Below, one piece after another: positions 4,553 to 55,224 of a stretch of 64,000 bases of DNA. Where the stretch lies: contig CAZUVH010000001.1 in the NCBI GenBank assembly GCA_964623775.1, positions 155,745 to 219,744 of the forward strand. Direction: 5' to 3'. The notes beneath the pieces were generated by a model, which worked only from the letters and a program-made list of their open reading frames with translations, was not told the origin of the DNA and did no database searches. Position numbers and translations under genes: made by a program. The stretch's first letter is position 1. Each line of letters opens with the position of its first letter. The stretch comes from an uncultured Candidatus Saccharibacteria bacterium (lineage in GTDB: Bacteria > Patescibacteriota > Minisyncoccia > Phycocordibacterales > UBA2100).

Positions 4553-5128
4553 ATGTATCAGAAATACCAGACAGATGCGCTCGTGCTCAGCTCTCGCGAG
4601 AGCGGAGAGCTGGACAAAGTGTACGCGCTCTACACCAGGGATTTTGGACTCGTGCGCGCGAGAGCGACGGCGGTGCGCAGTGAGAAGTCCAAAATGCGCT
4701 ATGCGCTGCAGAATTATTCGCGAGCATCGCTCTCGCTCGTACGCGGCAAGCGCGGATGGCGAGCAGCGGGCGCGATAGCACTCACTACGCCGATCGATAA
4801 GGATATGGCTGCCATAGCCGCTTTTGCCCGAATCTCGGAGCTTGTGACGCGTCTTGTGCATGGCGAAGAGAAAAATGAGTATCTCTTTGCCGCGCTCGTG
4901 GAGGCGCACGACGCTTTCATGAAAGAAAAATGCGAGGCGGTAGGCATGATCGAGATCGTCTGCGTCGCACGCATTCTCTACGCACTCGGATACATTTCTA
5001 CGGAAGCGCTCTCGACCGCATTGTTTAGCCACACTGCGTACACGGGGGAGTCTCTGCTCGAGGCCGAGACCATGAAAGACACCCTGCTCTCGTCAATCAA
5101 TCGCGCGATTTCAGAAACTCACCTCTAG
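4553..5128 (+). CDS. recO: DNA repair protein RecO-like (short form)
   Basis: N-terminus ALVLSSRESGELDKVYALYTRDFGLVRARA resembles the RecO OB-fold N-terminus. It sits 7 nt after the ileS stop. Confidence 0.5.
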   Translation: MYQKYQTDALVLSSRESGELDKVYALYTRDFGLVRARATAVRSEKSKMRYALQNYSRASLSLVRGKRGWRAAGAIALTTPIDKDMAAIAAFARISELVTRLVHGEEKNEYLFAALVEAHDAFMKEKCEAVGMIEIVCVARILYALGYISTEALSTALFSHTAYTGESLLEAETMKDTLLSSINRAISETHL

Positions 5129-5197
5129 AACTCAGTAGAGCAGGGGCGTGCCTCCCGTGTCGCAGATGTGGCTCTAAGGGGATGATATTATTTCAAG

Positions 5198-7261
5198 ATG
5201 GACTTTAAGAAGCCTCCGCGTCCGGAAAATCTCCAAAAACCGCCGGAGCCCGAGCGTCAGCCCGAGCTGCCACCAAATAGACCCGGCCCTTCGTCGGAGG
5301 TAGAGCGAATCGATCGCCTTCGCCGTGCGATGTACTCGCGGTCACTTTCAAAAAACCTCAAGGAGCGTGAGCGTAGGGAAATGGAGCCCACGAGGCCGAT
5401 TGTCGGCGAAGATTTCAAGGTGGGAGAGCTGGGAGTGCCCCAGGTGTCGGTCGCGCCAGGCGGCATTCTCTTTATGCGTAATATTTTGTGGTGGGTGCTC
5501 GGCGCTTCGATCCTCTTTTTCACCGGTACGATGATGTTTTTCGGGTACTATTTCTTTTTTGGTCAGGGAAGCATTGGTGCAGCTCCAGGCAATATTGATA
5601 TTGCGATCGCGGGTCCAGCGCAGGTTGCTGGCGGACAAGCATCTGCATTACAGATTGTTGTGACCAATCGCAACAACGTAGCGCTCAATCTCGCCGATCT
5701 CGTCGTGCACTTCCCAAAAGGTACACGCTCACCGACCGATTTCGTGACAGATGAGCCAGTGCTTCGCCAATCGCTCGGCACGATAGAGCCAGGTGGGCAG
5801 CGCCAAGGCACGGTAAAGGCCGTCTTTTCGGGCAAGGAAGGGGAAAAGGCGACCGTAAAGGTGGAGCTTGAATACCGGCTCGAGGGATCGGGCACTATTT
5901 ATGCGGCGGTGTCGGATTACACCCTGCAGTTTTCCTCGGCACCGATCGTCGTCTCCGTAGAAGGCAATTCTGAGACGATTTCCGATCAGCCAGTGCAATT
6001 TACGGTCACCGTCCAATCAAACACGAGTGCGCCCGTGCGCGACGTCGTGCTCAAAGCTGCATATCCGTTCGGCTTCAAGTTCTCGTCGTCCAATCCGGCT
6101 CCAAAGAGCGACGGATTCTGGGAACTCGGCGACCTTGCACCCGGAGGGAAACGCACCATCGTGATCCAGGGCAAGCTCTCGGGCGAAGCGTCGGATGAAC
6201 GCGTATTCAATTTTGTAGCCGGCACACGCAAAACCGCTGATGCGCAGCGCGTCGATACGCCTTTCCACGACACACCGTTCCATATGTCGATTTCGCAGCC
6301 GTTCCTCGGGCTCGTGATCGCGGTCAACAAAGCCACGGGGCAAAATATAATTGTTGGACCTGGCGACAATGTAAACATTTCTCTCAATTGGCAGAATAAT
6401 TTGAGTACGGCAGTCACTGACGCGGTTGTTGTCGCAAGACTCTCGGGTATACAGATCGACGGCTCAGGGGTGCGCACGACCGACGGATTCTATCGTTCTA
6501 CCGACTCGACGTTGATCTGGGACAAGACGACGACTGGTGGCGAGCTTGCCAGCCTCGCTCCGGGCGCACACGGCACGGTCGGATTCTCTTTCCAGATGCC
6601 GACAAGCGATGTTATCAACACGCTCCAAAATCCGTACCTCGAAATCACGGTCAACGCCTCAGGCAAGCGTGTTTCGGAAAGCGGCGTACCCGAAAACTTG
6701 CAGTCGACCTCGCGTCAGAAGATTGCGCTCGCGAGTGATCTGCAGTTTGTCGCACAGGGCCTGTACTACCAGAGTCCATTCGGATCCACCGGGCCGATAC
6801 CTCCCAAGGCGGGCACGGAGACGACATATGCAATGGTCTTTACAGTCAACAATACGACCAACAAGATCAACAGTGCCATCGTTACCGCGAAACTGCCGCC
6901 GTATGTGCGCTACGCCGGCCATTTCTCTCCAAATACCGAAGACGTTAAGTTCAACCAGAGCGACAATACGATGACCTGGAATCTCAATACGATCGAGCCG
7001 GGAGCGGGCCTAAACGGCGCACCGCCACGGCAAATGGCGATCGAGATCGGCTTTACGCCGTCGACGAGCCAAATCGGACAAGAGCCGCAACTCCTTCAGG
7101 ATATTATCCTGACGGGCATCGACGATTCGACTAAGGGTAAGATCACGCGCAGGGTCCCGCCGGTCACAACTAATCTCGCACTCACCTCAAAATCTTCTTC
7201 TGACATCGTGGTCGGTACGGACAAAGGTTTCAACTCCGCAAATGCGGCTGTAGTGAAATAA
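5198..7261 (+). CDS. hypothetical membrane-anchored exported protein with beta-rich repeat domains
   Basis: Pro-rich N-terminal tail of about 75 aa, one TM helix (ILFMRNILWWVLGASILFF) and about 560 aa rich in T/S/V/G predicted beta-strands. Confidence 0.55.
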   Translation: MDFKKPPRPENLQKPPEPERQPELPPNRPGPSSEVERIDRLRRAMYSRSLSKNLKERERREMEPTRPIVGEDFKVGELGVPQVSVAPGGILFMRNILWWVLGASILFFTGTMMFFGYYFFFGQGSIGAAPGNIDIAIAGPAQVAGGQASALQIVVTNRNNVALNLADLVVHFPKGTRSPTDFVTDEPVLRQSLGTIEPGGQRQGTVKAVFSGKEGEKATVKVELEYRLEGSGTIYAAVSDYTLQFSSAPIVVSVEGNSETISDQPVQFTVTVQSNTSAPVRDVVLKAAYPFGFKFSSSNPAPKSDGFWELGDLAPGGKRTIVIQGKLSGEASDERVFNFVAGTRKTADAQRVDTPFHDTPFHMSISQPFLGLVIAVNKATGQNIIVGPGDNVNISLNWQNNLSTAVTDAVVVARLSGIQIDGSGVRTTDGFYRSTDSTLIWDKTTTGGELASLAPGAHGTVGFSFQMPTSDVINTLQNPYLEITVNASGKRVSESGVPENLQSTSRQKIALASDLQFVAQGLYYQSPFGSTGPIPPKAGTETTYAMVFTVNNTTNKINSAIVTAKLPPYVRYAGHFSPNTEDVKFNQSDNTMTWNLNTIEPGAGLNGAPPRQMAIEIGFTPSTSQIGQEPQLLQDIILTGIDDSTKGKITRRVPPVTTNLALTSKSSSDIVVGTDKGFNSANAAVVK

Positions 7262-15862: not shown

Positions 15863-16435
15863 ATGTCCGTCCATCGTCACTATCCGCGCAATCGTATCCC
15901 CGTGCTTGAAACACTTGAGGCGTGGATCATCCTTGGTGGAGCGGTTTTAGCCATATGGCTCGCTTTCAATGAGCCGTTCGTGCACGATCTCGTCTCGCAG
16001 ACGGTAAAGCTCGGTTTTTTTGCGAGCTTTGTCATGGGTTTTTTCTTTACGTCTACACTCACGACAGTGCCGGCAATTGTCGCCATTATGGAAAGCGCAT
16101 CCCACATACCGGCATGGGAGCTTGCGATCGTCGGAGGGTTGGGCGCCGTCTGCGGGGATCTGTTGCTCTTTCGTTTTGTGCGCAGCCGTGTCGCCGAGCA
16201 CATATTGAGAGCGTGTACGAGCCCCGCACTCATGCGCCTTGGTCGGGCGGTCAGCAGGGGACCGCTCTGGTGGATCGTACCCGCCCTTGGTGCCATAGTC
16301 GTTGCGTCGCCGCTACCCGATGAACTAGGGATCATGATGATGGGCGTTTCGCACCTGCGACTCTATCAATTCATCCCGATTGTATTTTTTGCCAATGCAA
16401 GCGGTATTTTCCTCATCGCTCTCGCTGCGATGTAG
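15863..16435 (+). CDS. hypothetical membrane protein
   Basis: Four or five predicted TM helices. Confidence 0.45.
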   Translation: MSVHRHYPRNRIPVLETLEAWIILGGAVLAIWLAFNEPFVHDLVSQTVKLGFFASFVMGFFFTSTLTTVPAIVAIMESASHIPAWELAIVGGLGAVCGDLLLFRFVRSRVAEHILRACTSPALMRLGRAVSRGPLWWIVPALGAIVVASPLPDELGIMMMGVSHLRLYQFIPIVFFANASGIFLIALAAM

Positions 16436-26081: not shown

Positions 26082-26822
26082 ATCAGTCCCTTTTACTCCT
26101 TTATCGACCTTTTTGCCTCTTCATGATGAATGAAAGAAGTATGAAAGAGATGGCTCTACAGAGCGTCTCTATTATTGACTCCGCTAGGGTACTGCTGTAA
26201 TGTGCGGGCATAACTTTTGCGCCTAAGGGTCACCCAATGAGTAGTCCGAAAAGGGCGTTTGTTGAGCGATTTTTTACGCACAAGTTATCCACAAAGCGGA
26301 GTGATACGCCTCACCCATAGGCACACGTTCTGATATATAATTGTGCTGCGACATCTCTTATTGGAGATGTCACTGCGCATATGGCCGTGCTTCTGGCGTT
26401 GCGTATCCGATTTTGATCTTTGACATTTTCATAAGGAAACGACAGTGGATGAAAAGTCCACACTGTTTGATTAGGCGTGCGCGTCATCGCTTCTGGTGTG
26501 AAGCGTGCGCAAAATACTGACTCTCAGAAAATGTCCCGAGGATTCCGAAAATATTCCGAACGACACATTCCCTTCTTGATGCTAACCTCGCACATCACTT
26601 CTTTTAATTAAGAAAGATTGCGGGCTAGCAAAATACGTACTGCCGAAAAATAAAATTAAAAAATTATTTTTCGCAGTGCTCGGACGAAAGTCCAAATTAT
26701 CAGTTGTCTTCAGTTACTAGTAATTATTAATTGAGACACACTACGCATTCATTTTCTCTGTCGAAAGAAAAATGTATGCGGTTCTGATTTTTAAAATCAG
26801 AATCAAAGGTCAAAACATAAAT

Positions 26823-29800
26823 ATGAGTAAAGCATTAGCAACAAAAAATGTTGCGGCTATCGTTTTGGCTTTCGCTATGATCGTCGGCTTCGCGTTTTCT
26901 TTTGCCACACCGGCAAAGGCAGACATGATGTCTGATCTTCAGGCGCAAGTTCAAGCATTGCTCGCACAGATCTCAGCACTTCAGGGCGGCTCGAGCGCAC
27001 CGGTTTCGGGCGCAGGCTGCTACACCTTCACGCAGAGCCTCAAAAAGGGTTCTACGGGCGGTGAAGTGATGTGGGTCCAAAAATTCCTTAACAGTCATGG
27101 AGCACAGGTAGCTGCTAGCGGCGCCGGCTCTCCGGGTAACGAGACGAGCACCTTCGGTCCTGCGACCGCAGCTGCAGTCAAGAAGTTCCAGGAGTTGCAC
27201 GCTGCTGACGTCCTCACTCCGGTCGGCCTCACGGCTGGTACCGGCAACTGGGGTCCTTCGACTCGCGCAAAGGCAAACGCTCTCTGCGCAGGTTCGACAG
27301 GCGGCACGACAGGCGGCGGCACAACCGTCCCGATGACTGGAAACGTGATGGTTAGCGGCGGTGTACAGCCGGCCAATTCATTGGCTCCGGCAAGCTCTGT
27401 TCGCGTTCCGTTCACGACCTTCACAATCACCAACGGTTCTGGCGCAGCTGTCACCATCAATGGTGTCAAAGTACAGCGCACAGGCCTCGCTCAGGATGTC
27501 AACTTCACTGGCGTAGTCCTCGTTGATTCGAATGGTCTTCAGGTTGGCAACAGCCAGACCCTCAACTCGGATCACATGGCGACGATCGGCGGTACGTGGA
27601 CAATCCCAGCAGGTGCTTCCCAGACCTTCACGGTCGCGGGCAACATCGCTGCGGCTGCTACAGCCAAGTCGGGTGAAGTCGCAAGCCTCTCTGTTGTCGG
27701 TGTAGACACCGCAGCTACGGTTGGCGGTTCTCTCCCGATCACGGGTGCAAGCCACACGATCAACACGACTCTTGCTATCGGTACGCTCACGATCGGCACC
27801 TCACCTGAGGATCCGAGTTCGGCTACCAACAAGAACATCGGCGACACGGGCATCAAGTTCTCAGCCGTCCGCTTCACTGCGGGCTCGGGTGAGGATCTCA
27901 AGCTCTTCTCTGTTCGATGGCGCTTGAACGGCTCCGCTTCGTCTGCCGATATCGGCAACGTAGTGACGGTCGTCAATGGTACGACTTATCCGACGGTTCT
28001 CTCGTCTGATGGTCGTTACTACACCTCGACGTTCCCGGGCGGCATCATGGTCGCCAAGGGTATGTCGGTTGATGTCTTGGTCAAGGGCGATGTCGTCGGC
28101 AACAATGCTGCGGCTCGCACTGTCATCTTCGACATCGACAGAACTTCGGATGTCTACTTTGTAGGTCAGACGTATGGTTATGGTATCGCGTTGCCGACTT
28201 CCTCAACGGGAGGTACGTATGACTCGACCAACCACTCGACTTCTGGCTTCAACACAGCTAGTCAGCCTTGGTTCACGGGCGCGAAGGTCACTGTTCAGGC
28301 TGGTACAGTAACGACCATCCAAAATGCGTCGTCTGTCGCTGCCCAGAACATCCCGACCAACGTTCCGAACACGGTACTCGGCGGATTCATCACGAATTTC
28401 GCGGGTGAAGCAGTCACTGTCTCTGGCATGACCTTCTACCTCACGACGGCCGGCACCGGTGGTATCACCAACGTTTCCCTCGTTGATCAGAACGGCGCTG
28501 TCGTTGCTGGTCCGGTGGATGCATCGTTCTCTGGTACCAACGGCGTTGTCACGTTCACTTCGAACGTAACGTTCCCGGTTGGTTCACGCACCTACACGAT
28601 CAAAGGTAAGCTTGGTAACTCAGGCTTCACGAATGGTCAGACGGTTCAGGCCTCGACGACTCCGTCGGCATGGTCGAGCCCAGTAGGTCAGACCTCGGGT
28701 AACACGATCACGATCTCGACAGGCAACTTCACGATGGCTGTCATGACGGTCCGCACAGGATCGCTCGCTATCACTGCGGCCTCGTCGCCGGCTTCGGCCA
28801 GTGTCGTACGCCCAGCTACGAACGTCCGTCTCGCGAACATCCAGCTCGATGCCTCGCAGTCGGGTGAAGACATGCGCATCTCGAACCTTATTCTCAAGAG
28901 CACGGGTACAGCTCAGGAGGCCAGCCTTAGTGGCTGCCAGCTCTGGGATGGCACGACTGCGCTCAATACTGGTTCGAACGCGGTCAACACTGTCTCGACG
29001 ACAACCACGGTCACCTTCGATAACTCACTTACGATTACGAAGGGTACTGTGAAGACACTCGGATGGTCCTGCAACATTGCTGGCACAGCCAACAGTGGCA
29101 GCACGTACATCTGGGGCGTCAACTCGGGCAACACGATCACCGCAACGGGCGTCCAGTCTGGTAGCTCGTTCACGATCACTCCGACGACAGGTGCAAGTGG
29201 CACGATGACGCTCTCGACGGGCGCTTCAGTCACGATCACTGTTGACTCCTCGTCTCCGTCATACGCCGTACAGGCGGGTGGCGCGACAGGCGTCACGCTC
29301 GGTGTATTCAAGATCCGATCTGCAAATGAGGCTCTTAACCTCACGAAGATTGGTCTCCAGCTCGGTAGTGGTGCAGCAGCTGACCTTGGAACTGTAAGCC
29401 TCTACAACGGCTCCACACTCCTCGGTACTGCGACCTTCACCGGCAGCAATACGAACGCAACCTCGACACTCTCGAGTCCGTTCACAGTTGCTCAGGACAC
29501 CGATGTCTTGATCACGGTCAAGGGCGACCTTGCCATGATCGGCACTGGCCAGCCTGGTACCCAGGGTCAGCTTGTCAAAGTTGAACCTACCAACCAGTGG
29601 GAGGGCACGGGCGTAAGCTCGGGTTCAGTTGTGAATGCAAGCGGCAGCGCCGGAGTAGCTGGTGTCCGCACATTCAAGTCATTCCCGACGGTCGCTCTCG
29701 ACACCTTGTCTTCGACAGGCGTCGCTGACGGTCGCTTGATCCGATTCAAGGTCACGGCTGACAGCCATGGCCCAGTCGGTATCTGGGAGTTCCCGTTCAA

Positions 29801-30221
29801 CGTCGCTACAACGACATTGAGCGTCACGAACTTCGCGCTCTACGGCTACACTGATTCCTCGTACTCTCAGGCCATCTCTGGTCAGGATTCGGGTGGTCAG
29901 ATCGGCGCCACAATCAGCGCGACATCTACGAGCTTCATCGTCTTGCCGACAACCAACCCGGTACAAGTACCGGCTGGCAGCACCTACTACTTCGAGCTTC
30001 GCGGCTCTGTATCGGGTGTGACCTCTGGCGCGTCTGCAGTGACTAAGCTCTTGGGTGACACCACATACAATGGTCTCGCTCAGGCTGCTCAGGTAGCGGG
30101 CAACTTCGTCTGGTCTGCAAATGCAACCACGACGTCGTCAACCTCACACGCTGACTGGTCCAACGGCGCAAGTATTCCTGGCTTGTCGTCGAGCGGCATC
30201 ATCCAGACTCGTTCCAACTAA
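26823..30221 (+). CDS. giant cell-surface (S-layer-like) protein with signal peptide, coiled coil, peptidoglycan-binding domain and T/S/G/V-rich beta repeats
   Basis: Signal peptide (AFSFATPAKA), a PG_binding_1-like segment (GSTGGEVMWVQKFLNSHG ... AVKKFQELH) and about 950 aa of low-complexity beta-rich sequence. A terminator follows. Confidence 0.7.
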   Translation: MSKALATKNVAAIVLAFAMIVGFAFSFATPAKADMMSDLQAQVQALLAQISALQGGSSAPVSGAGCYTFTQSLKKGSTGGEVMWVQKFLNSHGAQVAASGAGSPGNETSTFGPATAAAVKKFQELHAADVLTPVGLTAGTGNWGPSTRAKANALCAGSTGGTTGGGTTVPMTGNVMVSGGVQPANSLAPASSVRVPFTTFTITNGSGAAVTINGVKVQRTGLAQDVNFTGVVLVDSNGLQVGNSQTLNSDHMATIGGTWTIPAGASQTFTVAGNIAAAATAKSGEVASLSVVGVDTAATVGGSLPITGASHTINTTLAIGTLTIGTSPEDPSSATNKNIGDTGIKFSAVRFTAGSGEDLKLFSVRWRLNGSASSADIGNVVTVVNGTTYPTVLSSDGRYYTSTFPGGIMVAKGMSVDVLVKGDVVGNNAAARTVIFDIDRTSDVYFVGQTYGYGIALPTSSTGGTYDSTNHSTSGFNTASQPWFTGAKVTVQAGTVTTIQNASSVAAQNIPTNVPNTVLGGFITNFAGEAVTVSGMTFYLTTAGTGGITNVSLVDQNGAVVAGPVDASFSGTNGVVTFTSNVTFPVGSRTYTIKGKLGNSGFTNGQTVQASTTPSAWSSPVGQTSGNTITISTGNFTMAVMTVRTGSLAITAASSPASASVVRPATNVRLANIQLDASQSGEDMRISNLILKSTGTAQEASLSGCQLWDGTTALNTGSNAVNTVSTTTTVTFDNSLTITKGTVKTLGWSCNIAGTANSGSTYIWGVNSGNTITATGVQSGSSFTITPTTGASGTMTLSTGASVTITVDSSSPSYAVQAGGATGVTLGVFKIRSANEALNLTKIGLQLGSGAAADLGTVSLYNGSTLLGTATFTGSNTNATSTLSSPFTVAQDTDVLITVKGDLAMIGTGQPGTQGQLVKVEPTNQWEGTGVSSGSVVNASGSAGVAGVRTFKSFPTVALDTLSSTGVADGRLIRFKVTADSHGPVGIWEFPFNVATTTLSVTNFALYGYTDSSYSQAISGQDSGGQIGATISATSTSFIVLPTTNPVQVPAGSTYYFELRGSVSGVTSGASAVTKLLGDTTYNGLAQAAQVAGNFVWSANATTTSSTSHADWSNGASIPGLSSSGIIQTRSN

Positions 30222-35321: not shown

Positions 35322-35855
35322 CCCCCCTACATATGGTAATTACGTCTAGTCGAAAGAAGCGGCAAAAGTAGCCTGTCTCACGACTCGCTGCCCAAGGCCG
35401 CTACTAAGCGGCTTTTTTCGTGAAAACCATATTGTTGCTCGTTGAAAACTGAAGAGCGAAAAACAAAAATAAACTTCGATCCGAAAGGGTCGAAGACAAT
35501 CAACAATGTTCCATCAGGTTCTCCATGCGAACAGCATGAAGGTCTTTCCTGGTGGAGCACAGGAAATTGTATCGTTGCATTGCAACGATGCGTTTGGTTC
35601 GCTCGGTCGACATGAAAGTAAAACTTTCCTGCGACCTCGCTGCCAAACGTAAAATAACCAAAGCAAAGTAGGTTCGCCGCACCTATTCAAAAAAGTGGAA
35701 GTCTTGCCGTTAGACAGCGGTGAGCACAAAAGGTTTTTCTGCACCTTTTTCCGCCCAAGGCGGATCCGCCTATGGCGGACAAAAAAGCGGGAGAAAACAA
35801 AGTCTCGTCACCTAGACAGTGACGAGCAATACGCGGTTCTTAGAATTCCTAGAGG

Positions 35856-38815
<2,960 letters not shown>

Positions 38816-38921: not shown

Positions 38922-39027
38922 GTTGGTGGTTTGGCGGAGATGTTACACCCGTTCTCATTCCGAACACGGCAGTTAAGCTCTCCTGCGCCGATGGTAGTCG
39001 TAAGGCAAGAGTAGGTCGCCGCCAACA
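38922..39027 (+). rRNA. rrf: 5S ribosomal RNA
   Basis: ...ccgaacacggcagttaagc ... gccgatggtagt ... gagtaggtcgccgcc. Confidence 0.85.
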
Positions 39028-42472: not shown

Positions 42473-43840
42473 ATGATACCTAATAATATGACACTTGTGC
42501 CAAAGCGTGAGTACCTCCTCCTTCTCCTGGGGGATATTGCCGTATTTGCGATAGCGTTGTGGTTTACGCTCGTGCTTCGCCTCCTCACCTTTCCACCATT
42601 TGATTTCTTCTGGATGCACCTGGTGCCGTTCTCGCTGCTCTTTATATCGTGGGTTGTCGTATTCTTTCTTGCCGGACTCTATGGCAGACATACGCGTCTC
42701 TTCAAAAGCAGACTTTTACCGACAATTCTCTATGCACAGATCATAAACGTCGTAATTGCGGCACTCTTTTTCTTCTTCGTTCCTGCCTTCGGCATCGCGC
42801 CAAAGACCATACTCTTCTTGTATTTGTGGATCTCGTTTCCTCTCATTGTCGTGTGGCGTGTCGCCCTTTTTCCTCATTTGCGCACCTCGCGCAAACTCAA
42901 AGGCGTACTTCTTGCTTCAGGGCCCGACGCGAAGGCGCTCGCAGAAGAGGTCGCGGAAGGTCGGTATACATTTTCGTTCCACTACATCATCGACACAGCA
43001 TCAGCTCCTACGCACCAGATCATTCAGCAGGTCCTGCGTGTAGCAGAAGAAGACGACATCACGTTCCTTGTGGTCGATTTTTCAGACAAATCGGTTTCTG
43101 CAGCGTTGCCCATCATGTATGATGCAGCGTTCCACAAGCACCGCTTTGCACTCCTCGATGTCATTGAGCTCTACCAGGAGCTTTTTGATCGCGAACCTCT
43201 CTCACTCATCAACTACGAGTGGGTGCTCGGCAATATCAGCGCATCTCGTATATATGACACGGTGAAGCGTGCGATCGACATCGCAGGGGCGATCGTCCTC
43301 GGTATTCTCTCGCTCGTTTTTTACCCCTTTGTCATGCTCGCCATTTGGCTCGACGACGGCGGCGATTACTTCATCACGCAGGTTCGTGTCGGAAGGTTCC
43401 AGCAGCCGATCAAGATCATCAAATTCAGGAGCATGAGCGGCAATGACGAGGGTGCATACGATCAGAGTGGCAAAACCAAACTTAAAGTCACGCGGGTGGG
43501 GAGGTGGTTGCGCGTCTTGCGCATCGATGAGTTGCCGCAGCTGTGGAATGTTCTCATGGGTGAACTCTCGCTCGTCGGCCCTCGTCCCGAGTTGCCCGCG
43601 CTCGTGAATCAATACAATGCGCGCATTCCGTACTACAGCGCGAGGTACCTCGTCGCACCGGGACTGATGGGGTGGGCGCAGCTCAAGCATGACCGGCACC
43701 CACACCACGGTACAGATATCATCGAGACGAAAGAAAAACTGTCCTACGACCTCTATTATCTCAAGCACCGATCGCTCCTCCTCGATATTTTCATCATTTT
43801 CCAGACTGTCCGAGTTATTTTTACAGCCCGTGGCTCGTAA
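42473..43840 (+). CDS. polyprenyl-phosphate sugar phosphotransferase (bacterial sugar transferase, WbaP/CpsE-like)
   Basis: C-terminal domain with ELPQLWNVLMGELSLVGPRPE. N-terminal TM helices. Confidence 0.8.
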   Translation: MIPNNMTLVPKREYLLLLLGDIAVFAIALWFTLVLRLLTFPPFDFFWMHLVPFSLLFISWVVVFFLAGLYGRHTRLFKSRLLPTILYAQIINVVIAALFFFFVPAFGIAPKTILFLYLWISFPLIVVWRVALFPHLRTSRKLKGVLLASGPDAKALAEEVAEGRYTFSFHYIIDTASAPTHQIIQQVLRVAEEDDITFLVVDFSDKSVSAALPIMYDAAFHKHRFALLDVIELYQELFDREPLSLINYEWVLGNISASRIYDTVKRAIDIAGAIVLGILSLVFYPFVMLAIWLDDGGDYFITQVRVGRFQQPIKIIKFRSMSGNDEGAYDQSGKTKLKVTRVGRWLRVLRIDELPQLWNVLMGELSLVGPRPELPALVNQYNARIPYYSARYLVAPGLMGWAQLKHDRHPHHGTDIIETKEKLSYDLYYLKHRSLLLDIFIIFQTVRVIFTARGS

Positions 43841-43865
43841 ATCAGGAAAGCGGTACAATAGAACA

Positions 43866-44888
43866 ATGCAAATCGGTACATTAAGGCAATGGATCGGGTA
43901 TTCCGTCGTGCTTGTAGTGGTTCTCCTCGTCGTCCCACCCTTTCTCACAAAAGCTGAGGGCACCGACGCAGACAAGATGTGCAATCCGTTTATTAAGCAA
44001 TGCGGATGTGGCGAGAAACCTAATCCCAAAACAGGAAAGTGTGAAAAAAAGGGTGGACCGGAGGTCAATACGAAGGATTGTCCGATGTACTGCAAGGACA
44101 ATACAAATGGTCATACGACCGTCGGACATTGCGTAGAGCAGAATAAATGCAAGGGCGATCTCTGCGATGGAAAACCATGCGAACAAAACAAAGGAGAAGG
44201 GGGCAAGCCGCCTGAGATGCCAAAACCACCGGAATCAAAAGACAGTCCTTCTTCAGGTGGGAGTCCGTGCGGAGCTGATGGCGCATCTACAGGTCTTCGA
44301 GATAGTATCGGAGCGATTCCGGGCGCTTCATCTACCCGGAGCGCCTCCTCGACGCCTTGCGGCTTGAGTGCAGAACAAGACAAATTCGTCGAATTCATGT
44401 CTGGCGCATCAACATCCGGATCGCAAGCGTCTGATTGGTACGGACAGAATCCATCGCAAGTTGCAAACGGCGAGGCAAGACCAACCCTTGAGAGTTATAT
44501 ACAACAGCTGCGCGGATATTTTGGCGGGATTCCATCTACGGCACAAATTCGCGCGGGAGATTCGGTGCAATCGGCGGCAGAGGCAGCGAGGTCCACGCTT
44601 GATGCGCGAGGATTCAATCTCAGTCTTGCTGACATCCAGCAATTGTCACTCTTGCCAGCATTTTTACGCGAAAATTCCGATGCGCTTCGTGTCAGTGCGG
44701 GCTCGGGCGTGAACGAAAATAGCAGCGGTCAGTCAGGAGGTCAAAATCAAGCACAGGGCGTGCCAGACAGTATTGCGCCATTTCGCGAGAGTCCTGCTAC
44801 GGGATTCTTGCCGCCAACACCCGGACAATCTTCACCTGGTTTCTTTGAAAGCAGATGGAGTGCCGTTAGAGCTTTTCTCGGACTTTAG
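43866..44888 (+). CDS. secreted cysteine-rich protein, hypothetical
   Basis: Signal peptide, then 14 Cys in about 90 aa, then S/G/Q-rich low-complexity sequence. Confidence 0.45.
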   Translation: MQIGTLRQWIGYSVVLVVVLLVVPPFLTKAEGTDADKMCNPFIKQCGCGEKPNPKTGKCEKKGGPEVNTKDCPMYCKDNTNGHTTVGHCVEQNKCKGDLCDGKPCEQNKGEGGKPPEMPKPPESKDSPSSGGSPCGADGASTGLRDSIGAIPGASSTRSASSTPCGLSAEQDKFVEFMSGASTSGSQASDWYGQNPSQVANGEARPTLESYIQQLRGYFGGIPSTAQIRAGDSVQSAAEAARSTLDARGFNLSLADIQQLSLLPAFLRENSDALRVSAGSGVNENSSGQSGGQNQAQGVPDSIAPFRESPATGFLPPTPGQSSPGFFESRWSAVRAFLGL

Positions 44889-46786: not shown

Positions 46787-46840
46787 TCGGCCTTGGGCCG
46801 AAAAAAGTAACTCCCCGATCGATTGATCGGGGAGCTGTGA

Positions 46841-47446
46841 CTAGTAGTTCCAGTTATCTTGCTCCATTCTTTTGAATGCACTTTTGACCGTGTCCTCGAG
46901 AGAGTCGTAAACCTCGAAGTGCCGCAAACGCTTCTTGTAATTTGCAATGATCGCCTTACGTCCCGGAAATTCCGGCTCAATCCCAAGAACGTATCGGATT
47001 TTGTTTCGGTCGTACATCATTCGGCCGAGCAAAAGTCCGACTTCAGTTCGTGAGTTCATTGCGTATGGGTTGCCATCCGATCGTGGTTCCGTCGCACTTT
47101 CAACGGGCAACCAATAAACCGCGCACCCTTGCGGCAGATGAATGGCAGCCATATCTGCAACGTATTCGATCCAGTCGAGGCGAGTATATCGCCTCAAAGG
47201 CGGTTGCTGTTCCGTTTCCCCGCGCTCAGCAGGGGGACGTGGCATTCGAAGCTTTGCGAATGGATGACTCTCCTCATACTGACAAGGCATCGCAGCGCAG
47301 AACTCATCGCCGAATTTCTCGGCGAAAAGTTCGTAGGCCCTTTTGCGCCAGTCGCCGCCCCCTTTGTCGGGGCCGCCGAAGAATATGAGCGGCTCCCTGA
47401 TGTCTTTTCTGAGGTCGGGAATTTTCACGGGGTAGATTACCGACAT
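46841..47446 (-). CDS. nucleoside 2-deoxyribosyltransferase-like (NDT/MilB-fold) protein
   Basis: LIFFGGP near the N-terminus. NSRTEVGLLLG resembles the DxGTxFExG catalytic-Glu motif. AAGGAG RBS. Confidence 0.45.
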   Translation of the reverse strand: MSVIYPVKIPDLRKDIREPLIFFGGPDKGGGDWRKRAYELFAEKFGDEFCAAMPCQYEESHPFAKLRMPRPPAERGETEQQPPLRRYTRLDWIEYVADMAAIHLPQGCAVYWLPVESATEPRSDGNPYAMNSRTEVGLLLGRMMYDRNKIRYVLGIEPEFPGRKAIIANYKKRLRHFEVYDSLEDTVKSAFKRMEQDNWNY

Positions 47447-47545
47447 GAAGCAACTCCTTACATTGAATTTTGACTGACGTCACTCTATACCTCGTTCCAA
47501 GAATTGCAAAGAAATAGACCCCGACGTATGTCGGGGTCTTGAGTG

Positions 47546-48370
47546 TCAGATTGAGAACGAGCGCTCGTATGCTTTCAGCTCCGCGTCGCGCTCAAGGAGC
47601 CATGCGGCTTCGTTTGCATCCGAAACAGGGTGCGCAAACGAGATGTGGGAGTACCGGTCGACGTCCTCGAGCCGGTCGTACTTGACGCCGTGCAAGGTAC
47701 CTCTGCCGAGCTTGCCGTGCGAGATGGCACCAAACTTCCGGCCAGGGAAGAGGCCCACCTTGCTGCAGGTCGTCTCGTCGATACGTTTCCACTCGTCAAA
47801 CGGCGTATGCACCATGAGGCCTGTTTGCGAGGCTCCCCAGTGATTGGTGATGCCACCGCGATCGAGATGTGGAAAAGCGTCGGATTTGCCCGGGTACGCG
47901 CGCAGGTAGCGCAGGTCGCGAGAAATGATGCGTCCGCGGCTGAATCGCTCGACCATCGATCCGTTGTATGCACCAAGTTTGGCGTTGAGAATATCGACGC
48001 TCGCTGCGATGGCAAGAACGTTCTCGCGTGCCCGCGCATCGAGTTCGCGGTGCGCATCAAAAAATTCTCTAAGTCCGACATCGCGGCGGACTTCAGGCAT
48101 GTCCTCGAAATGTGCATCGATCGCGTAGTGGAAAATCCACTTGTGCTCGTCGTCGGTGCGTAGCACGAGGCCGACCTCTTGCGCATATGCTTTGCCGTAG
48201 TGGTCCTCTTCGAGGACTCGCCACGGAAAAAGCTTTGCGAGGCCCGGATCCTCGGTGATACGTTCCATACCGCTTCGGATGATCTCCAGCCGTGGGCGCA
48301 GGAACCGCTCCTCGATCGGGAACTCGACGTAGCCCTGATGCAATATCGTCTCTCCAACGGTGGGGAACAT
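47546..48370 (-). CDS. 2OG-Fe(II)-oxygenase-like protein (tentative)
   Basis: Spacing of HLD (HxD), a downstream H and RYS (RxS). GAGAAAGG RBS. Confidence 0.4.
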   Translation of the reverse strand: MFPTVGETILHQGYVEFPIEERFLRPRLEIIRSGMERITEDPGLAKLFPWRVLEEDHYGKAYAQEVGLVLRTDDEHKWIFHYAIDAHFEDMPEVRRDVGLREFFDAHRELDARARENVLAIAASVDILNAKLGAYNGSMVERFSRGRIISRDLRYLRAYPGKSDAFPHLDRGGITNHWGASQTGLMVHTPFDEWKRIDETTCSKVGLFPGRKFGAISHGKLGRGTLHGVKYDRLEDVDRYSHISFAHPVSDANEAAWLLERDAELKAYERSFSI

Positions 48371-48618
48371 GGTAATGCCTTTCTCAACTTGGAGGAGTGA
48401 AGGACCAACCAAACTACTGGCTAATTCCTGCGCCAACCGTAGCACGCGTGTTTTTTTGAGTTATCCACACGCTGTCCACAATCCACAACTGTACGAAGGG
48501 GTATACCACCACACCAATAGCGGCTGATTCCAAGTTCATCTCAGCGATTTTTTGTGTGGAAAAAGTATGACTCCGGTGCGCCGTTTACAGCTATTGGTGT
48601 GGTGGTATACTGCCGCCC

Positions 48619-50990: not shown

Positions 50991-51629
50991 ATGCGTTCGG
51001 TAGCGATGGTTTTTGGCCTCATCCTAGCTTTCTTTTACTTCGATTCTGCGCATGCAGAAGATTTTTTTACCGCGAAGCGGATCCTTCTTCGTGAAGGGGC
51101 GGTGGCATTAAAGTGGCAAGCTCTTTTGAGGCGTCACGCAATCGAAAGTACCGAACTTGATGCATGTAGGAGTGATCCAAGTACATGTACTGCGAGTCAA
51201 AAAAACTACTTGGCGCTCCTTGAAATCGCACGCGGTAAAAAACCGGGCATACTGAATCGTGCGATCAATTACTCGATCCGGTACACTGGCGATTTTTCGC
51301 AGCATGGGCACGTGGATGTATGGAGTACTCCGCTCGAGACGCTTGCGACCGGAAGGGGAGACTGCGAAGACTACGCCATCTTAAAGTTTCTGCTTTTCAA
51401 AGATGCAGGCGTCCCGGCGGAAGACCGGCGACTGATCATCACGCGTGAAAAGAATCTCCATGACGGAAAAGATAGAGATCACATGCTGCTGGCTCTCAAG
51501 GTGGAAGGGACCTGGCTCCTCCTGGACAGTCGCCACCTTAGCTTGCTCGGAGTACGGGAGATGACGGCAGAGATTCTCTTCGTGCTCGACGAAAGTGACG
51601 TGCATCTGACACTACGTAAAGGTAAATAA
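50991..51629 (+). CDS. bacterial transglutaminase-like cysteine proteinase (BTLCP/LapG-like), exported
   Basis: Signal peptide and the GDCEDYA signature of DUF920/Peptidase C93. Confidence 0.6.
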   Translation: MRSVAMVFGLILAFFYFDSAHAEDFFTAKRILLREGAVALKWQALLRRHAIESTELDACRSDPSTCTASQKNYLALLEIARGKKPGILNRAINYSIRYTGDFSQHGHVDVWSTPLETLATGRGDCEDYAILKFLLFKDAGVPAEDRRLIITREKNLHDGKDRDHMLLALKVEGTWLLLDSRHLSLLGVREMTAEILFVLDESDVHLTLRKGK

Positions 51630-53570: not shown

Positions 53571-55027
53571 TTTACTGAGAGTTTGATCCTAGCTCAGGGT
53601 GAATGCTGGCGGTATGGATAAGGCATGCAAGTCGAATGGGTTTAGACCCATGGCAGACGAGGTAGTAACACGTAGGAACGTACCCGGAAGTCGGGCATAA
53701 CCAGCCGAAAGGTTGGATAATTCCCGATGGTCTCGCAAGAGTAAAGATTTATCGCTTCCGGAGCGGCCTGCGTTGTATCACGCTAGTTGGTGAGGTAATG
53801 GCTCACCAAGGCTATGACGCATAGGGGACCTGAGAGGGTGACCCCCACCGATGAAACTGAGACACGGTTCATACCCCTACGGGGGGCTGCAGCCGAGAAT
53901 ATTCGACAATGGGCGAAAGCCTGATCGAGCGATACCGCGTGGTGGATGAAGTGCTTCGGCACGTAAACACCTTTTATGGAGGAGGAAGTCATTGACGTTA
54001 CTCCATGAATAAGGGGCTCCTAACTCTGTGCCAGCAGGAGCGGTAATACAGAGGCCCCAAGCATTACCCGGAATTACTGGGCGTAAAGAGTGCGTAGGTG
54101 GTCGTGTTAGTCGTTTGTTAAAAACCCGGGCCTAACCCGGGGAGTGCGAGCGAAACGGCACGACTAGAGGGAGTGAGAGGTGAATGGAACTCATGGTGTA
54201 GGGGTGAAATCCGTTGATATCATGGGGAACACCGAAAGCGAAGGCAATTCACTGGCACTTTCCTGACACTCAAGCACGAAAGCGTGGGTAGCGAACGGGA
54301 TTAGATACCCCGGTAGTCCACGCCCTAAACTATGTCAACTGGCTTTCCGGAGTATCGACCCTCTGGGAGGCGAAGCTAACGCGTTAAGTTGACCGCCTGG
54401 GTAGTACGGTCGCAAGACTAAAACTCAAAGGAATAGACGGGGGCTTGCACAAGTGGTGGAGCGTGTGGCTCAATTCGTCGCTAAGCGAAGAACCTTACCC
54501 AGACTAGAAATCCTACTGCACGTCTAGCGAAAGCTAGAAAGCCTTCGAGGGTGTAGGACAGGTGATGCATGGCTGTCGTCAGTTCGTGGTTTGAATCGTT
54601 CCCTTCAGTGGGGTAACGAACGCAACCCTCGTTGCCTGTTATATTTGTCAGGCGAGACTGCCCCCTCACGGGGGAGGAAGGTGAGGATGACGCCAAGTCA
54701 GCATGTCCCTCTGATGTCTGGGGCTGCACACGCGCTACAATCGCCGTTACAAAGGGGCGCAATACCGTAAGGTGGAGCAAATCCTTAAAAGCGGCGCCAG
54801 TTCGGATTGAGGGCTGCAACTCGCCCTCATGAAGCCGGAATCACTAGTAATCGTGGGTCAGCCACACCACGGTGAATACGTTCTCAAGCCTTGTACTCAC
54901 CGCCCGTCAAGTCAGGGAAGTTGGGAGTGCCCAAAGCCGACTCTTGTAGTCGTCCAAGGCAAACTCAATGACAAAGACTAAGTCGTAACAAGGCACGGGT
55001 AGCGGAAGCTGCTCGTGGAATCATTTC
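53571..55027 (+). rRNA. rrs: 16S ribosomal RNA (divergent: 530-loop variant; 3' end without CCUCC)
   Basis: 5' gagtttgatcctagctcag ... attagataccc ... ccgcccgtca ... aagtcgtaacaagg. Confidence 0.88.
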
Positions 55028-55224
55028 AAACGAAAGGTTTCGCGATTCGTCGTCGAAATCGTTTGTCGATTCGAATGGCTCAATTGACCATTCGACGAGT
55101 AATCACATTCAACTCAGAATGATGTGTGACACATGGGAAAGACCATGGGAAATGGACGGAACAAAAGAGTGTTAAAAAACTGTTAGCTGTGTGAAAGTAC
55201 AATCGATATTCAGAATTCAAAAGC

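Follow-up and report, generated by a model that had tools for sequence, protein, structure and literature searches.

Two divergent and probably independent neighbour genes, encoding a flavodoxin-like protein and an Fe(II)/2-oxoglutarate oxygenase, in a variable SecDF–FolD slot of a candidate phyla radiation bacterium

Introduction

Two adjacent genes, here called gene A and gene B, lie on the minus strand of a 64,000-nt stretch of DNA (the window; positions 155,745 to 219,744 of contig CAZUVH010000001.1, assembly GCA_964623775.1) from an uncultured Candidatus Saccharibacteria bacterium, a member of the candidate phyla radiation (CPR). The closest known counterparts of gene A are the Pfam family PF15891 (Nuc_deoxyri_tr2) and the PDB entry 4mcj (BDI_0649 of Parabacteroides distasonis), a structural-genomics entry named “putative nucleoside deoxyribosyltransferase”. 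We found no experimentally shown function for either of them, and a match to this group gives gene A a fold, not a reaction. The classical nucleoside deoxyribosyltransferase (NDT)-like enzymes belong to PF05014, such as Lactobacillus NDT/PDT, DNPH1/Rcl, MilB and BlsM, and the nucleophile motif of NDT-type families is D-x-G-T-x-x-E-x-G. Gene B joins the isopenicillin N synthase (IPNS)/DOXC-type oxygenases (PF14226 DIOX_N plus PF03171), among them SO_2589 (3on7), CC_0200 (3oox), the thymine dioxygenase thymine-7-hydroxylase (T7H; 5c3p), pyrimidine deoxynucleoside 2′-hydroxylase (PDN2′H; 9hdl), AdaV (7fh5) and the ethylene-forming enzyme. Both themes meet in fungal thymidine salvage (PDN2′H, nucleoside hydrolase, T7H, isoorotate decarboxylase), where 2-oxoglutarate (2OG) oxygenases of the structural class of B are combined with N-glycoside cleavage. 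Bacteria of the CPR have long been viewed as anaerobic fermenters, and the ultra-small symbionts among the CPR and the DPANN archaea are believed to rely on scavenging for their nucleic-acid building blocks.

Genes A and B had originally been predicted, from the DNA sequence, to encode an NDT-like protein resembling MilB and BlsM and a 2OG oxygenase that together might form a nucleoside-modification pair. Here, we place both proteins as very divergent members of known superfamilies and trace their relatives. The explanation that we favor, with a probability of roughly 60%, is that they are independent neighbors sharing one syntenic slot, A being an N-glycosidase- or transferase-like protein of nucleotide salvage and B an oxygenase.

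Results and discussion

Two conserved genes with their own predicted terminators

Both same-strand open reading frames (ORFs) of the original prediction exist at the coordinates it gave (Table 1), with a spacer of 99 nt between them. Homologues on independent metagenome contigs keep the length of gene A at 42–81% identity, with 58 invariant columns, and that of gene B at 61–69% identity, with 111 invariant columns. Since these homologues come from independent contigs and the motif residues are conserved among them, A and B are real genes and their motifs go beyond chance. The motifs highlighted earlier were found at residues 20–26 (LIFFGGP) and 131–141 (NSRTEVGLLLG) of protein A and at H168-L-D170, H227 and R239-Y-S241 of protein B. 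For gene B, a longer reading from a GTG at 48445 is possible; we took the ATG as its start because four homologues begin at this position and GAAAGG, resembling a ribosome-binding site, precedes it.

Table 1. Coordinates of genes A and B, their predicted functional elements and other features of the window.
Feature	Position	Strand	Remarks
Gene A	46841-47446	-	201 aa; flavodoxin-like/NDT-like, divergent, PF15891-related
Gene B	47546-48370	-	274 aa from ATG; divergent Fe(II)/2OG oxygenase
AAGGAG ribosome-binding site	47454-47459	-	7 nt before the A start codon (ATG); read from sequence
E135 codon (A)	47042-47044	-	candidate catalytic Glu; helix N terminus after strand 107-113; motif D-T-x-G-E-L-G; E in 107/119
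H168-L-D170 codons (B)	47861-47869	-	HxD of predicted Fe(II) facial triad; aligns with H-T-D of thymine dioxygenase; just after predicted strand 163-165
H227 codon (B)	47690-47692	-	predicted distal His; aligns with His of T7H “TVHRV”; before strand 229-232
R239-Y-S241 codons (B)	47648-47656	-	predicted RxS clamp for the 2-oxoglutarate C5-carboxylate; aligns with RYS of T7H
Terminator-like hairpin past B	47516-47539	-	7 nt past B stop; 10-bp stem, 7 G-C pairs, then AUUUCUUU
Terminator-like hairpin past A	46809-46836	-	between convergent A and FolD; -22 kcal/mol, z = -7.05
23S rRNA	35855-38815
5S rRNA	38922-39027
16S rRNA	53571-55030		downstream of 23S and 5S, same strand
Transglutaminase-like cysteine protease	50991-51629	+	Peptidase_C93/BTLCP, E 1e-10
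Cys/Gly/Ser/Pro-rich protein	43689-44888	+	399 aa
PG_binding_1 protein	26772-30221	+	1149 aa
DUF11 protein	5198-7261	+	687 aa
tRNA-Glu (UUC) call	15926-16006		81 nt, ARAGORN; anticodon at position 40
ORF overlapping the tRNA-Glu call	15863-16435

Each of the two genes is followed by a terminator-like hairpin (Table 1). The RNA fold of the hairpin between B and A has −20 kcal/mol (z = −7.1), a stability reached by none of 200 shuffled sequences, and a U-rich tract follows its stem. Hairpins were found at both corresponding places of a related contig, L003, whose A is 73% and whose oxygenase is 26% identical to that of the window. That they recur there with different stem sequences argues that the terminators, predicted as they are from sequence, are functional and that the two genes are separate transcription units.

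Separate distributions of genes A and B

In the window, the slot reads SecDF | B, A | FolD, and it was found in four states among relatives. Gene B together with gene A was seen in the window and on two metagenome contigs (JGI 3300071358 and JGI 3300047160). A second oxygenase subfamily, B′, accompanies A in L003, and B′ without A, directly abutting FolD, occurs in four lineages (L068-70, L071-73, L074 and L075). Gene A stands by itself in Candidatus Kaiserbacteria GW2011_GWA2_52_12 (LCQW01000033, here L043), the flanks of which are collinear with the window at identities of 70% (SecD), 71% (SecF), 80% (epimerase) and 77% (Bac_transf); neither tblastn nor hmmsearch detected a remnant of B in this slot. 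From this collinearity, we assign the window to a Kaiserbacteria-like member of the Parcubacteria (CPR/Patescibacteria).

Subfamily B′ (~311 aa) was first met beside A in L003 and then by profile-seeded search; it is 21–27% identical to B and carries an extra “PRxDEIAEGR” insertion. Relatives of B were sought by word-seeded and profile-seeded searches, and those of A also exhaustively. A first word-seeded search with B returned five relatives, and word-seeded searching among 5.8 billion clustered proteins gave 15 relatives of the B and B′ types. Flanks could be read for 11 of the 15, and all 11 came from one syntenic slot. A scan of GTDB genomes with the B alignment found no relative, a metagenome scan with B′ found two loci, one of them already in hand, and a scan of IMG/VR for B found none. 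Altogether, our searches met B solely in a narrow clade and at a single syntenic slot, as two subfamilies that are ~25% identical to each other.

The oxygenases of the window and of L003 (positions 2034–2969 of that contig) occupy the same slot on the same strand with the same terminator arrangement. Because they share only 26% identity, while the flanking genes are 78% (SecD), 73% (A) and 62% (FolD) identical, the comparison suggests that the oxygenase was swapped in situ for a distant paralogue between the two, rather than having diverged in the ordinary way.

On the SecDF side of the slot, the B′-only relative L068 carries, at 1990–2223 and 4909–5577, genes for a Y1 (IS200-type) transposase and for UDG, together with an ORF of the 23S_rRNA_IVP family, which suggests local rearrangement near the slot.

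The family of gene A is distributed quite differently. A GTDB scan, performed with an 8-sequence alignment subset whose patterns left the window's own clade unretrieved, yielded 64 loci. CPR labels (Saccharibacteria, Parcubacteria/Paceibacterota, Minisyncoccia, Kaiserbacteria, Colwellbacteria, Peribacteria, Absconditabacterales or “Patescibacteria group”) were attached to 48 of these; two belonged to DPANN archaea, ten to unclassified “bacterium” entries and four to metagenome-assembled genomes (MAGs) with unverified labels as Gammaproteobacteria or Bdellovibrionales. The A family thus hardly extends beyond CPR bacteria and DPANN archaea, and it is mostly missed by current domain models. In none of the 64 loci did a B- or B′-like ORF lie within ±10 kb of A; adjacency of A and an oxygenase was seen in the window clade and in L003 only. 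Gene A usually stands alone: when its 121 immediate neighbors were scanned with Pfam, no family recurred at more than three loci, and in most genomes of the family envelope genes are not near it. No relatives of A were retrieved from IMG/VR, and searches with PADLOC and PHROG gave no match, on which grounds the readings as a defense system or a phage gene were rejected. Such a distribution agrees with a role in housekeeping or salvage in symbionts with small genomes, rather than with defense or secondary metabolism.

Because A and B are each followed by a terminator and are each found alone among relatives, we interpret the adjacency of A and B as local synteny, not as an operon. The nucleoside-modification pair of the original prediction did not hold up against these data: a terminator separates the genes in the window and in L003, all 64 GTDB loci of A lack B within ±10 kb, B′ occurs without A in four lineages, and the syntenic Kaiserbacteria slot holds A only. 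The pattern points to two neighbors that are transcribed separately and are not coupled in function.

Gene A, a divergent branch of the PF15891/4mcj group

Direct scans of protein A against Pfam and NCBIfam gave nothing relevant even at E ≤ 1, PF05014 and PF15891 included. A word-seeded search returned five relatives, a number that proved to be an artifact of the word index. When 1.84 billion cluster representatives were searched exhaustively with HMMER, 449 relatives came up at E ≤ 1e-3, 187 of them reaching E ≤ 1e-10, and most were single-domain proteins of 180–200 aa; the 449 representatives stand for clusters at 50% identity and are a lower bound. PF15891 was matched by 21 of 119 family members (~18%) at E ≤ 0.01, the best match having an E value of 5.4e-6, and PF05014 was matched at this threshold neither by A nor by any of the 119 relatives.

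Structure comparisons lead to the same group. The A-family profile had a sole match among PDB sequences, 4mcj (E 0.18), which aligned the loop after strand 1 and the following W-E-containing helix, and chains of 4mcj were the sole significant Foldseek matches of the A model (E 5e-5), a similarity above the generic Rossmann/flavodoxin background. None of the solved NDT, DNPH1 or MilB structures matched the fold closely; MilB and DNPH1 fell into the twilight zone, at Foldseek E values of 0.07–0.2 and probabilities of 0.54 and 0.41. TIR domains, YtoQ and LOG-like proteins appeared lower in the fold lists. They are the expected neighborhood for the NDT/TIR/LOG superfamily and no evidence for membership among the classical NDTs. 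A failed the profile and fold tests for membership among the classical NDT/MilB/DNPH1 enzymes; it is a divergent branch of the uncharacterized PF15891/4mcj group with a flavodoxin-like fold. The NDT-like assignment therefore survives at the level of superfamily and fold, through the relatives that match PF15891 and through 4mcj, and not as a direct family match of the window protein; the specific resemblance to MilB and BlsM gives way to one with PF15891 and 4mcj.

The consensus of the A family is F-F-L-A-G-P-x-x-G-G-G-D-W-Q … W-E-R-x-Y … G-C-x-I-F-W-L-P-x-E-S … P-R-x-D-G-x-P-Y-A-x-D-T-x-G-E-L-G-E-W-R. With 4mcj, the family shares FLAG-x-x-x-G-x-x-DWQ after strand 1 and an “F-x-x-Q-x-x-WE” helix. 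However, identity to 4mcj is just 14–16%, A is ~50 residues longer, and the A proteins of the window clade carry an extra low-confidence insertion at residues 67–88; the near-confinement of the A family to CPR and DPANN also sets it apart from PF15891 overall. With the classical PF05014 enzymes, A shares the topology of the superfamily, a loop rich in Gly that follows strand 1 and an acidic residue ending strand 3, and its Glu at the N terminus of the next helix (family motif D-T-x-G-E-L-G, resembling the nucleophile motif of NDT-type families) would be a further likeness, although the lack of any PF05014 match separates it from them.

G25, P26 and G29 are kept in 118–119 of 119 family members, and at position 116, 103 members have E and another 12 have Q. 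In the A model, helix 128–140 follows strand 107–113, with E135 at the N terminus of the helix, a position that we take, from motif and topology and not from superposition, to be the place where NDT-type enzymes carry their nucleophile or general base. In our reading, gene A is a lineage-specific divergent copy of a stand-alone protein of ~190 aa that is widespread in CPR and DPANN. By analogy with NDT, DNPH1, MilB and LOG enzymes, it would most likely act on a (deoxy)nucleoside or nucleotide, cleaving or transferring its N-glycosidic bond, with E135 at the helix start after strand 3 and the acidic E116 at the end of strand 3 as likely catalytic residues, and it would serve nucleotide or base salvage.

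Gene B, a divergent Fe(II)/2OG oxygenase

Protein B also escaped direct scans with Pfam and NCBIfam, which gave nothing relevant even at E ≤ 1, PF03171 included. The profile check proposed together with the original prediction (PF05014, PF15891 and PF03171) thus turned out against it for both window proteins. As with A, relatives revealed the assignment: PF03171 was matched by 10 of 15 B-family members (best E 4.7e-5), and the meaningful PDB matches of the B-family profile were 2OG oxygenases only (T7H, E 0.0013; 3on7, 0.031; 3oox, 0.13). The HxD, the distal His and the RxS are in register in the alignment with T7H, the RxS being a motif whose basic residue lies ~10 residues past the distal His in this superfamily. 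All 15 sequences of the B and B′ subfamilies, with identities down to 21–27%, have H168, D170, H227 and R239; residue 241 is S or T, with T in B′.

The B model consists of an N-terminal helical/beta domain and the double-stranded beta-helix. Figures listed for the comparison with solved structures were 16.7 for 3on7 (iron/ascorbate oxidoreductase family), 15.7 for AdaV, 15.3 for GA2ox3, 15.2 for 3oox, 15.0 for PDN2′H, 14.8 for T7H and 13.8 for IPNS, from alignments spanning 196–227 of the 274 residues. These matches place B in the IPNS/DOXC structural class, to the exclusion of the AlkB, JmjC and prolyl-hydroxylase classes. The enzymes acting on nucleosides or bases (AdaV, PDN2′H and T7H) score no higher than plant hormone oxygenases. 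B resembles the IPNS/DOXC type also in its size (~270–340 aa) and as a soluble single chain, but it is only ~8–13% identical to each of the solved structures and stays under every Pfam and NCBIfam threshold.

The call as a 2OG oxygenase is thus well supported by relatives and fold, although a direct PF03171 match of the window protein is missing; B is a very divergent member of a known superfamily, unseen by current Pfam and NCBIfam models. From the intact H168-x-D170…H227 triad and the R239-x-S clamp, we infer a catalytically competent, soluble enzyme that probably hydroxylates or otherwise oxidizes a small molecule with O2, and that would do so independently of A.

Weighing alternative explanations

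Several observations weigh against two independent neighbors with the activities proposed above. About 10% of the A family lack Glu at the E135 column (P0005, P0011, P0019 and P0032 among them in alignment A4), and a literature search found no member of PF15891 with demonstrated activity. The A proteins of the window clade are off consensus at D131 (N or M), E93 (I), Q89 (R), W139 (L) and R140, although they keep the putative catalytic E135 and E116 despite these departures (residues 89, 93, 131 and 138–140). D131N/M, E93I and W139L occur only in genomes with an upstream oxygenase, which would fit neofunctionalization alongside B. Adjacency of B or B′ and A in the same orientation is kept in JGI 3300071358, JGI 3300047160 and L003, and has outlasted even the exchange of the oxygenase for a 26%-identical B′; such retention could reflect selection for linkage, and the terminators may be read through. 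The structure models have modest confidence (pLDDT 67.5 for A and 71.6 for B), and the beta-helix core of B scores just 50–65.

The strongest competitor, in our view a doubtful one, takes A as a ligand-binding or non-catalytic flavodoxin-like or TIR-like protein, or as an NADase-type effector, and B as an unrelated tailoring enzyme, e.g., for an envelope component or secondary metabolite. It gains from the replaced E135 and the lack of a characterized PF15891 member in the literature found, and from the position of the slot beside an envelope-polysaccharide set (epimerase, Bac_transf and GT4 glycosyltransferases). However, D-T-x-G-E-L-G, the acidic end of strand 3 and the G-P…G-x-W after strand 1 match the general active-site layout of the NDT superfamily, models of defense and phage genes gave no match, a defense-island context is absent, and the A family lies mostly away from envelope genes.

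A coupled function of A and B appears unlikely. In such a two-enzyme module for nucleoside or nucleobase salvage or modification, A would free or exchange the base or hydrolyze a nucleotide, and B would oxidize the base or sugar, modelled on fungal thymidine salvage (PDN2′H, N-glycoside cleavage, T7H) or on the tailoring of nucleoside antibiotics. The shared strand, the 99-nt gap, the adjacency that the window clade and L003 retain and the restriction of the consensus departures of A to genomes with an oxygenase upstream would agree with it, as would the top rank of thymine dioxygenase among the PDB sequence matches of B; that match, though, spans just the generic HxD/H/RxS core. A conserved terminator separates the genes, A is without B and without any recurrent partner in 64 of 64 other genomes, and B-type genes occupy the same slot without A in four lineages. 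Unlike the partners in fungal thymidine salvage, A and B are not co-distributed, and no isoorotate-decarboxylase-like gene is found among their annotated neighbors; the resemblance is conceptual only.

A narrower version, which we consider improbable, would restrict the coupling to one subclade of Kaiserbacteria, in which an incoming B or B′ recruited the resident A into an O2-dependent nucleoside or nucleobase route similar to fungal thymidine salvage, with N-glycoside cleavage followed by T7H- or PDN2′H-like oxidation. If true, an organism without de novo nucleotide synthesis could interconvert scavenged pyrimidines, and the accelerated divergence of window-clade A at the active-site-proximal D131, E93 and W139 would be the trace of this recruitment. 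Finally, decay of one or both ORFs to remnants in a reduced genome is very improbable, for the instability of the slot and the consensus residues missing from window-clade A are outweighed by intact full-length ORFs with sequences resembling ribosome-binding sites and with terminators, by homologues that keep their length and invariant columns (58 and 111) at 61–81% identity, and by the completeness of the predicted catalytic residues of B.

Oxygen use and significance

In a 2025 study, CPR taxa including Kaiserbacteria grew in groundwater incubations, adaptation to oxic conditions was judged to be widespread, and several O2-using enzymes were listed in CPR MAGs (PMC12577380). It had been argued that an O2-dependent enzyme would be notable in an anaerobic symbiont; B is indeed worth noting, as one more such enzyme in a lineage once held to be strictly anaerobic, but it comes as no surprise, since O2-using enzymes have already been reported in CPR bacteria (PMC12577380).

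With the pair unsupported, the finding is of modest importance. A and B are each a very divergent member of a known superfamily, and we demonstrate nothing that is new in kind; through the fold assignments, two “hypothetical proteins” without a Pfam or NCBIfam match become testable enzyme candidates. If the A family were to consist of true nucleoside or nucleotide N-glycosidases or transferases, it would represent a widespread unannotated step in the nucleotide scavenging of ultra-small symbionts. Literature searches on PF15891, on 4mcj and on NDT enzymes of CPR or Patescibacteria brought up no relevant paper.

Other features of the window

The neighbors of A and B in the window are housekeeping genes, with an IleRS-type tRNA synthetase, FtsK, FtsW, glycosyltransferases, an epimerase, FolD and SecDF. 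Three further proteins were noted (Table 1). A Cys/Gly/Ser/Pro-rich protein has a hydrophobic N-terminal segment and no Pfam match, and L001 and the JGI contig each have a gene of similar size, likewise without Pfam match, at the corresponding place. Two larger proteins with sole domain matches to PG_binding_1 and DUF11, respectively, may be cell-surface proteins. The tRNA-Glu call in Table 1 overlaps an ORF and was not reported by the Rfam tRNA model at the gathering threshold; it could be a false positive, or else a tRNA that is unusual or interrupted. The rRNA genes are not linked, and their order is unusual, with the 16S gene downstream of the 23S and 5S genes. Approximately 14.5 kb between 5S and 16S hold FtsW, glycosyltransferases, the epimerase, FolD, A, B, SecDF and the BTLCP-type cysteine protease, which lies directly downstream of SecF.

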